Origin: an uncultured bacterium
GTDB lineage: Bacteria; Actinomycetota; Acidimicrobiia; Spongiisociales; ZC4RG35
DNA length: 64,000 nt
NCBI GenBank assembly: GCA_963745865.1
Contig: CAVUYZ010000003.1
Coordinates: 131,407-195,406 of the forward strand
Direction: 5' to 3'
Both the position numbers and the translations under genes were made by a program. The notes beneath the pieces were generated by a model. The model was not told the DNA's origin, made no database searches, and was given only the letters and a program-made list of their open reading frames with translations. Positions 11,867 to 14,397 of the stretch are shown piece by piece (position 1 is the stretch's first letter; each line of letters begins with the position of its first letter).

Positions 11867-12004
11867 GTAAAGTATGGGTTGATATTAGGATGGATTAGGT
11901 GATTAAAGATGGAATAAGATAGGAGGAATGATAGGGAATAATAGTGAGGTGTTTATTGTGATGTAGGATTGATAGGTATGGGATTGATGATGATAGGTAT
12001 AGAG
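11867..12004 (+). other. Cytosine-free tract on the plus strand (138 nt, only G/A/T)
   Basis: The last C before the tract is at 11866 and the next C is at 12005. My hand count over 11881-12000 gives G41 A41 T38 C0. Confidence 0.95.
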
Positions 12005-12121
12005 CTAGAGATAGTCGGTGGAGCAACTACTCGAAGATCTCTGCTGAATCGCTTGTCAAAAAGACGATCGTCAAACTAACGAATGAAAACATGCCGACGA
12101 GCGTCGTCGGGATCGAGCGCG

Positions 12122-12322
12122 AAAAAAAAAAAAAAAAAAAAAAAAAAAAAAAAAAAAAAAAAAAAAAAAAAAAAAAAAAAAAAAAAAAAAAAAAAAAAAA
12201 AAAAAAAAAAAAAAAAAAAAAAAAAAAAAAAAAAAAAAAAAAAAAAAAAAAAAAAAAAAAAAAAAAAAAAAAAAAAAAAAAAAAAAAAAAAAAAAAAAAA
12301 AAAAAAAAAAAAAAAAAAAAAA
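12122..12322 (+). repeat. Uninterrupted poly(A) homopolymer, 201 nt
   Basis: Read directly from the sequence: g at 12121, A from 12122 to 12322, g at 12323. Confidence 0.97.
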
Positions 12323-12365
12323 GTCGATGTGTCGCTCGACGAGTCAGCGCGAACTGGTTAGATTA

Positions 12366-12403
12366 TATTATAATATAATATAATATTATATTATATTATA
12401 ATA
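12366..12403. repeat. Perfect 38-bp AT-only palindrome: tatt(ATAAT)3(ATTAT)3aata
   Basis: Base-by-base pairing around the centre at 12384/12385 holds out to 12366/12403. It lies inside the AT-only run 12362-12403. Confidence 0.9.
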
Positions 12404-12450
12404 CGGCGATGAAGAGACTCCTCACGACTCTTAGAATAGTAGAAGTTATT

Positions 12451-12554
12451 ATATTATATTATATTATATTATATTATATTATATTATATTATATTATATT
12501 ATATAATATAATATAATATAATATAATATAATATAATATAATATAATATAATAT
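12451..12554. repeat. Perfect 104-bp AT-only palindrome: (ATATT)10 AT|AT (AATAT)10
   Basis: Pairing around the centre at 12502/12503 holds out to 12451/12554 and fails at 12450/12555. It lies inside the AT-only run 12446-12554. Confidence 0.9.
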
Positions 12555-12725
12555 GATAAGAGCCAAGGTTGTCTTCACGGCCGGAGCGACTTCGATCTCA
12601 GGTCGGCGGCCGGGGTAGACGCGTGGCAGCAACTCCTGGAGCAGGCGGCGACTAGTAGACGAGATGGGCGGTTCGCTCTTTGGTGAGTAAGGTGAAGGGT
12701 AGCAGAGAGTGGTTATTTCTCTAGC

Positions 12726-12826
12726 GGATGTAAGGTGAAGATTTAGTGGTGGTGTTATAGAGGTTTAAGGTTATATGGGATATAGAGGGGATGATAGATA
12801 AGGGTAAGGTGGTAGATATGTGTAGG
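12726..12826 (+). other. Second cytosine-free tract (101 nt), inside a C-poor zone spanning 12679-12848
   Basis: There are Cs at 12725 and 12827 and none between. Further C-free stretches are 12828-12848, 12893-12928 and 12930-12961. Confidence 0.9.
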
Positions 12827-14397
12827 CAGATGAGAATTTGAGTGAGGGCTTAGATTACACGACTGTCGAAGTAGAAGCCGCTTCGTCGTCCCAGAAGATA
12901 AGGGGAGTTTTAGAAAGGTGGTGGAGAGCTGAGTGGGGGTGGGTGTATGATGGGATGTATGCTATGGCAATATGTGTTTCAGCTTCATGGCGAAGAGGGA
13001 GGAGCAATACTAGACAAGGGGACGCGGAAGGGCTCCTCTTAGAGTTGCTAAGGGGTGACGTGATGCACGACGGCGGCGCTCTGAGGAGAAGCGGCAAGCA
13101 GTAGATTTGTGTTTGGAGTGTAAGGTGTGTGAGCACGGAGTGCGTGGTGAATATGGACATGGATACTTATAAGGTGGAGTTATTGTCTCATCACTTCTAG
13201 GGTAGAGTGCGCGCAAGAGAGGTATATGCGATCGGTCTGATCTGCTCGAGGGCCCGGGTCGCGTAGAAGGCACCGAGGCAGCTCTGCATCTCACCTCTAC
13301 GCCGGGCCTGAGGGATGCCCTGAAACTGCTCGCAGGTGTTGCGAGAGAGCGGACGACCGCCCGGTTCGCTCTCGAGACGCTCCGATCCTGGTTCGACGCT
13401 CGCTAGGGCAACGGAGGTGGCGAGAGCGGCGACGGCGACGGGGCCTCCAGTGAGACCAGGACACCCGAGCTCAATGCCCTCAGCGTCAAGCAGCCGACTC
13501 CACCGCCCTTGCACGTCGATACGGTGATCCTGTGGCCCGACACCTTCAACAACTTCCTCACACCCGGCCCGGCTCGTGCCGCGGTGGACGTTCTGGAGCG
13601 AGCCGGCTACGAGGTCGTCTTGCTGTCTCGACCACTGTGCTGCGGACGCGCGCTCTACGACTTCGGGATGCTCGACACTGCTCAGCGCTTGTGGAAGCAG
13701 ACGCTCGATGAACTGCGGCCACATCTCCGGCGAGGGACCCCGATCGTCGGTGTCGAGCCGAGCTGTATCGCCGCGTTCCGTGACGAGCTCCCGAACCTGT
13801 TCCCCAATGACGAGGATGCCCAGCGGCTGTCGCAGTCCACCTATCTCCTGAGCGAGTTTCTGCTCAGGCAGAGGGTTCGCGTCCCAACCCTGAACCGCAC
13901 GGCGATCGTCCAGGGCCACTGTCACCACGACGCCGTCATGCAGATGGACTCCGAACGCGCCGTGCTCGATGCGATGGGCCTCGACTTCGAGATACTCGAC
14001 TCTGGCTGCTGCGGCATGGCTGGCCCGTTCGGCTTCTCGGCCGACAAGTACGAGATCTCGATGCGGATCGGCGAGCGGGTGTTGCTCCCCAGAGTCCGGG
14101 CCGCCGCTACCGAGACCTTCATCGTTGCCAACGGGTACAGCTGCAGGGAACAGATCGCCCAGACGACCGACCGGAGGGCTCTCCACCTGGCCGAGATCAT
14201 CGTGATGGCCCAGGATCACGGGCCGGAAAGGCCCCCCGCCGGCCGCCCGGAAGACCATCGCCCCCACGGCCGGCAGCGGGAGAGAACACCGCAGTGGAGC
14301 TCGCTACTCAGACGGGCCGCATCCCGCGCCCTGCCCGCCATCGACACCATCACAACACGCACGTCGATCACGACCAACATCGCAGAAAGGAACGACA

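Follow-up and report, generated by a model that had tools for sequence, protein, structure and literature searches.

A cytosine-depleted block in a YdiJ-like oxidoreductase gene as a probable technical artefact of a deposited metagenome assembly

The host gene and its altered interior

The window analysed here is a 64-kb stretch of contig CAVUYZ010000003.1 (assembly GCA_963745865.1) from an uncultured member of the Acidimicrobiia, and the subject of this report is a block of about 1.6 kb (11761-13406) that departs from the 65% guanine-plus-cytosine (GC) style of the window in the interior of a gene for a YdiJ-like oxidoreductase with flavin adenine dinucleotide (FAD) and iron-sulphur (Fe-S) domains. 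The block is derived from the native gene by changes specific to cytosine and to one strand, it is publicly recorded, and it is absent from a near-identical relative. The host gene lies between cytochrome bc/oxidase genes on one side and a gene for a thiamine-diphosphate enzyme on the other, and the features of the locus are collected in Table 1.

Both ends of the host gene are recognized by Pfam, with FAD_binding_4 (PF01565, E 9e-8) in the first 149 codons (11453-11899) and the CCG cysteine-rich domain (PF02754, E 9e-10) in the last 302 codons (13509-14414). Domain order and size are shared with the YdiJ-type D-2-hydroxyglutarate dehydrogenase of E. coli, in which a GlcD-like FAD domain is combined with a GlpC/GlcF-like Fe-S CCG domain. 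A full-length orthologue (L001) reaches 489 bits against the NCBIfam YdiJ equivalog model NF049975, the cut-off of which is 1350, and to judge by this score the host gene belongs to a YdiJ-like paralogue family that is related to YdiJ without being YdiJ itself and is therefore no equivalog.

Orthologues were found at 80 loci of a genome collection with identities of 54-68%, and the best relative of the C-terminal domain in this collection is 68% identical, which makes collinearity usable at the protein level but not base-level counts. By tblastn the orthologues of 1035-1090 amino acids (aa) are collinear with the window, residues 7-108 corresponding to 11471-11761, 124-174 to 11799-11945, 464-492 to 12564-12650, approximately 494-565 to 12652-12866, and 566 onward to 12867-14255. 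On long contigs the gene calls for many relatives of the C-terminal domain are mere pieces of 260-500 aa, compared with about 1050 aa for the full gene, and frame breaks are found inside the homologue in at least two of the loci (L018 and L023).

A protein search with the C-terminal domain also retrieved a 98% identical entry (P0001) on a 20,379-bp contig of the ENA (L081), and this contig provides the reference for all base-level comparisons below. L081 aligns to window positions 3324-20572, and outside 11755-13410 the two differ at only 65 places in about 15.6 kb, corresponding to 99.6% identity; 13 of these events are indels. The contig carries the host gene, of about 1075 codons, without the block, and its domains are FAD_binding_4, FAD-oxidase_C (PF02913, E 6e-39), a weak Fer4_8 and CCG. 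Small indels break the L081 gene into three calls, and the name of its record, 'contig_102892' in ERZ25039549, follows the contig_N style of the other long-read contigs from metagenome-assembled genomes that were matched. The shorter contig, L081, is error-prone too, as it is missing 2 nucleotides (nt) at window 11605-11606 without which it disagrees with the orthologues. Deciding by open-frame length which contig is wrong at each indel proved too noisy in this high-GC genome. On this comparison, the true sequence at the locus is most likely an ordinary intact YdiJ-like oxidoreductase gene, as in L081.

Table 1. Positions, strands and supporting evidence for the host gene, the zones of the altered block and other genes of the window
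Feature	Position	Strand	Evidence or remark
YdiJ-like FAD-binding/Fe-S oxidoreductase gene (FAD_binding_4 + FAD-oxidase_C + Fer4 + CCG)	11453..14417	+	Pfam, tblastn; unreadable in the assembly
Left transition zone: native composition, 6-nt deletion, single-base indels, mixed substitutions, frame 2 to 1 to 0	11761..11866	+	L081 alignment, substitution table, three-frame translation
C-free tract (138 nt) with the IGGMIGNN remnant	11867..12004	+	Composition, L081 alignment
Collinear native patches, C kept, separated by a skip of about 230 native nt	12005..12117	+	380 nt in L081 (8661-9040) against 149 nt in the window (11969-12117)
Pure insertion CGCG-A201-GTC (208 nt), A run at 12122-12322	12118..12325	+	Flanking bases adjacent in L081 (9040/9041)
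Native patch with internal deletions	12326..12357	+	L081 alignment
AT-only tract with perfect 19+19 palindrome (12366-12403)	12358..12403		Palindrome search
Native-derived patch with C>A/T changes	12404..12440	+	L081 alignment
AT-only tract with perfect 53+1+53 palindrome (12447-12553), (TATTA)n then (TAATA)n	12441..12561		Palindrome search, L081 alignment
Near-native patch, C kept, few substitutions, frameshift at about 12651	12562..12680	+	Orthologue and L081 alignments
C-depleted zone, C-free at 12726-12826, remnants MC.S.MA.REE..TRGR and DLCL.CK.C, two further frameshifts	12681..13230	+	Orthologue and L081 alignments
Right tail, sparse changes, ending with C>T (CAG to TAG stop at 13404-13406)	13231..13406	+	L081 alignment, substitution table
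Intact C-terminal open reading frame, identical to public gene call P0002 (297 aa)	13524..14417	+	Protein search, exact-sequence look-up
MacB/FtsX permease gene	49434-51697	-	Frameshift at C5 run 'CTGCCCCCGAAC', ~50050
Amino-acid permease gene	53272-54993	+	Pfam profile positions 75-217 and 217-407 in different frames near 54100
RNase-J-like beta-CASP gene	62651-63933	-	Frameshift at C5 run 'GAGCCCCCATT', ~63310

An earlier interpretation made from the letters of the window and their translations (the sequence-only reading) had described a stretch of altered composition with C-free tracts, a run of 201 A, two AT-only palindromes and native-looking patches. All of these are present and none is expected by chance, and the native-looking patches at 12004-12121, 12323-12357, 12404-12440 and 12562-12680 are collinear with the intact gene of L081. 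The limits then given, 11867-13230, were too narrow, since a deletion of 6 nt and clustered errors at 11761-11785 already belong to the block and its right tail extends as tabulated. GC content falls to 8-30% in the core, and every low-GC window of the 64 kb lies inside the block. With C at a frequency of 0.313 in the window, an uninterrupted stretch of 138 bases other than C has a probability of about 3e-23 per start, and the A201 run is the sole homopolymer of at least 8 bases. The block is unique within the 64 kb, and nothing comparable was present in 1.1 Mb of other loci examined.

The alignment further shows that native sequence has been lost. In the core, 837 nt of L081 (8661-9497) correspond to 593 nt of the window (11969-12561), and between the collinear patches the window has lost about 450 native nt in numerous deletions, each of 10-90 nt. 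The host gene thereby measures 2965 nt compared with 3226-3228 nt in L081, a net loss of 263 nt, and the proposal that length had been conserved does not hold. The longer AT-only tract (12441-12561) takes up 121 nt and stands in for exactly 121 nt of native sequence. Native A or T is kept in the AT palindromes at 30 of 41 collinear-offset positions, a proportion that is non-significant once the number of offsets tried is counted. In a metagenome scan the palindrome core had one match, at 1-120 of an AT-rich contig (L082, Ga0268261_10065063) that opens with a (TATTA)n/(TAATA)n palindrome; this match is uninformative for the block, and it indicates that such palindromes occur in AT-rich DNA or at contig ends elsewhere.

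The reading frame of the host gene changes repeatedly, and after the shifts in the left transition zone it passes from 0 to 1 (12652), to 0 (12867), to 1 (about 13130) and back to 0 (about 13290). The claim that three motif remnants survive in the frame of the host gene is thus correct in one respect, as all three read as described in frame 0 and match the orthologues, and mistaken in another, as the frame is not maintained between them. The serine counted as a surviving residue at the end of the first motif (NNS) is the product of a 1-nt deletion. The profile search that the sequence-only reading had proposed gave no placement, since neither the stop-tolerant frame-0 translation nor a frame-corrected composite of the block matches any Pfam family, and FAD-oxidase_C went undetected in the former; the collinearity of the remnants with the homologues was instead established by direct alignment. 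Positions 11866 and 13231 are non-adjacent in the homologues, L081 and the orthologues of 55-68% identity alike having some 1.6 kb of homologous gene in between, and an origin of the block by insertion is thereby excluded as had been proposed. In agreement with the same proposal, no transposase, reverse transcriptase, integrase, target-site duplication or terminal repeat was found at the flanks.

Fate of the native cytosines and the public record

Substitutions were counted in the alignable zones 11867-11999 and 12651-13230 with the L081 base as reference. Out of 228 native C, 64 became A, 75 T and 11 G, 14 were deleted and 64 were kept, so that 164 (72%) were changed, whereas only 21 of 502 native A, G and T (4.2%) were altered; 89% of all changes accordingly fall on C. 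This spectrum fully bears out the prediction that C on the plus strand had been replaced by A or T while G was spared, and the two substitutes are used in about equal measure. No C survives in 11867-11999, and across the whole C-free tract (11867-12004) all alignable native C are gone, 14 having become A, 21 T and 1 G, with a further 11 deleted. Further downstream the proportion of changed C is 77% in 12651-12860, 63% in 12861-13000, 31% in 13001-13100 and 70% in 13101-13230, and it drops to about 10% out to 13406. Native A is unchanged at 122 of 125 positions across the five tabulated zones and G is essentially unaltered in the block. The retention of G implies that a single strand is affected, as would be expected from a single read.

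The bases other than C are nevertheless not free of error. Their error rate is 4.2% in the block compared with 0.42% in the flanks, and the 21 changes observed stand against 2.1 expected (Poisson P ~1e-14). This tenfold increase suggests a general loss of accuracy rather than a chemistry aimed at C. The identity of the substitute base is moreover dependent on its neighbours, both the previous (chi-square P 1e-6) and the next (4e-5). TCG became TAG in all 16 cases with an A or T outcome (16:0) and ACG became AAG rather than ATG by 10:1, while C followed by A went to T rather than A by 18:2 when preceded by A, C or G, and TCA gave 2 A to 1 T. Such context dependence fits a context-dependent decoder, unlike random editing or deamination.

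The edges of the block are present in public databases. By protein search, P0002 matches at 100% identity over 297 aa, and its contig of 745,932 bp is recorded at both NCBI and ENA. By exact-sequence look-up four open reading frames (ORFs) of the window are public in NCBI and ENA, all on this one contig. Two of them are neighbouring genes. The third, 11453..11899 (149 aa, P0121), is recorded on one contig only; it ends at a stop in 11900-11902 and its last 12 codons lie inside the C-free tract. The fourth, 13524..14414 (297 aa, P0002), starts just past the new TAG at 13404. The exact presence in the public protein collection of an ORF that ends within the C-free tract indicates that the block was not added to the window.

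Explanations weighed

Taken together, these observations make it highly probable that the block is a technical artefact which became fixed in the deposited long-read metagenome assembly, and that it is no property of the organism's DNA. Three lines of evidence converge on this explanation. The block is missing from L081, an independent sequence of the same population; it combines an effect on one strand with raised general error, skips and low-complexity output; and the same assembly carries other consensus errors, in the form of three frameshifted housekeeping genes. The sequence-only reading had likewise preferred a non-biological origin, which remains best supported, but among the variants that it listed a synthetic edit and downstream data corruption are disfavoured by the public ORFs, leaving a consensus or assembly artefact. 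The three findings that it had named as contrary to itself, adjacent flanks in intact homologues, non-collinear remnants and a spectrum not concentrated at C, did not arise, and its errors over frame, length and block limits leave the verdict as it is.

We infer which platform was used, that one read gave rise to the block and that polishing failed, and the most likely course of events is the following. About 1.6 kb of the consensus would have been taken from an aberrant single-strand segment of a read that was never overwritten by polishing. Within this segment base calls would have degraded stepwise, cytosines first being called A or T according to their neighbours, stretches of the template then being skipped, and finally a stall-like A run and short-period AT-only output being produced. 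The outcome would be a false pseudogene, divided into calls of 149 and 297 aa. Abnormal nanopore signal may give homopolymer or short-period output, and skipped template, a long homopolymer and AT output with a 5-nt period would be expected when one molecule slips or stalls in the pore.

The nearest described parallel is consistent with this course in part. Spurious 'noise' reads tied to particular pores, as well as low-complexity reads that need filtering, have been reported for nanopore sequencing (PMC5872496), and like the block as interpreted here they are non-biological sequence that arises from a single strand. The spurious reads are whole reads that pass a complexity filter and are not embedded in a gene, whereas the block lies inside one (PMC5872496). 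Neither a clean loss of C with retention of G nor perfect palindromes, both of which characterize the block, are described in that report (PMC5872496), and nanopore as the source platform is itself presumed here.

Several observations weigh against the artefact. Polishing of a well-covered contig should have corrected the zones of C>A/T change, which can still be aligned at 75-80% identity; their survival therefore requires low local coverage, or that the reads were recruited to a contig such as L081. A literature search found no described base-calling failure that loses C, and we are not aware of any in which C is cleanly eliminated and G retained. Nor would a base-caller obviously give rise to perfect reverse-complement palindromes of 38 and 107 nt. 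The public verification covers only the two edges of the block, and none of 11 ORFs and start variants from its interior was found in the public protein collection by exact look-up.

A related explanation is that the called sequence is wrong for a chemical reason, namely that in the molecule sequenced the cytosines of one strand were heavily damaged or modified along some 1.6 kb, as for example in exposed single-stranded relic soil DNA or a hypermodified patch, and were misread by the base-caller, which then stalled or slipped. This would account for changes that are specific to strand, to C and to context, and for a severity that is graded toward the centre holding the A run and the skips. 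The tenfold degradation of the other bases, the abrupt alternation of C-losing zones with patches in which C is kept, and the failure to find modification or deaminase genes nearby among the scanned ORFs argue against it, and we regard it as improbable.

A shade less probable again is that the block was put into this window or file once the record had been deposited, whether by synthetic editing, as a planted control or through file corruption. Its artificial look, with saturating replacement of one base, a run of exactly 201 and perfect palindromes, speaks for such an origin, and the interior ORFs missing from the public protein collection are in keeping with it. Yet the ORFs of 149 and 297 aa are exact public entries, the 745,932-bp contig that carries both also carries the neighbouring genes, the choice between A and T follows context unlike a simple random replacement, and bases other than C are also in error.

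We consider it very improbable that the sequence is real, that is, a very recent pseudogene produced by saturating, strand-specific and C-targeted hypermutation together with deletions and low-complexity expansions. The derivation of the block in place from the native gene, the concentration of 89% of the changes at C of one strand and the presence of the block in the deposited record are all compatible with this view. However, C went to A about as often as to T (64:75), unlike the C>T that deaminases produce, conversion is complete over 138 nt with zero changes of G, and errors at other bases are ten times the flank level. An A201 run and perfect AT palindromes would also have arisen inside a 65% GC genome. 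A 99.6% identical relative shows no trace of the block, the block-specific ORF is on one contig only, the scanned ORFs of the window include neither a deaminase nor a reverse transcriptase, and the gene occurs in the window just once. The broader proposition that the block or its C-depleted zones are physically real, with cytosines of one strand converted or hypermodified to near saturation and visible either as true mutations or as systematic misreads, is equally hard to credit. If true, it would reveal a strand-specific, cytosine-directed process in a soil bacterium without known counterpart.

Known systems that rewrite one class of base resemble the block only in part. AID/APOBEC kataegis, DddA-type toxins and bisulfite conversion likewise yield clustered and strand-coordinated changes of cytosine, but these are dominated by C>T, in contrast to the ratio of C>A to C>T (64:75) and the conversion of up to 100% found here. 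Natural deaminase footprints are furthermore far from saturating and without indels, homopolymers or palindromes. A deaminase footprint was accordingly rejected on the full spectrum given above and on the indels and non-C errors. Diversity-generating retroelements also rewrite one base class inside a gene while keeping the others, but they target adenine, depend on a reverse transcriptase together with a template repeat, and leave the frame intact, none of which applies to the block; this candidate was rejected as the changes are at C and not A and as no template repeat or reverse transcriptase was found.

Insertion of a foreign AT-rich or mobile element into the gene, to which the core GC of 8-30%, the A201 block as a true insertion relative to L081 and the similar palindrome of L082 might seem to point, can practically be dismissed, as the flanks are separated by about 1.6 kb of homologous gene in the homologues, collinear native patches occur throughout the core, neither a target-site duplication or terminal repeat nor a transposase or integrase was found, and the L081 alignment contradicts it by showing most of the block to be host gene with C replaced.

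Other features of the window and significance

Three housekeeping genes elsewhere in the window are each broken by a single frameshift, two of them at C5 runs (Table 1), and this looks like residual indel error of long reads. Next to the host gene, an ORF of 960 aa (14398-17280, + strand) encodes a complete thiamine-diphosphate enzyme fused to a module of the enolase superfamily (MR_MLE N and C domains). The thiamine-diphosphate part is of the NCBIfam PRK08273 type (972 bits) and has TPP_enzyme N, M and C domains; the counterpart in L081 is divided by an indel into 809 + 160 aa.

Across the 64 kb no tRNA genes were found and Rfam gave zero matches at gathering thresholds. Domains of reverse transcriptases, transposases, integrases and deaminases were absent from the window ORFs scanned, which were the longer ones. 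The L081 gene matches the window at a single locus, leaving the host gene without a second copy there, and a degenerate pattern for the native or the altered form had zero matches in the metagenome scan.

Our verdict is that the block represents no real feature. A real block would be targeted hypermutation of a new kind, but the evidence is strongly to the contrary, and the finding therefore matters for data hygiene only. An intact gene of 1075 codons is turned into two orphan calls (149 aa and 297 aa), both of which are already in protein databases and need flagging as well, and blocks of this sort will go on being picked up wherever unusual composition is searched for. A near-identical contig together with a per-base substitution table allows them to be recognized quickly. 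The public record of this bacterium carries an apparent 1.6-kb corrupted stretch within its YdiJ-like oxidoreductase gene, which should be flagged.

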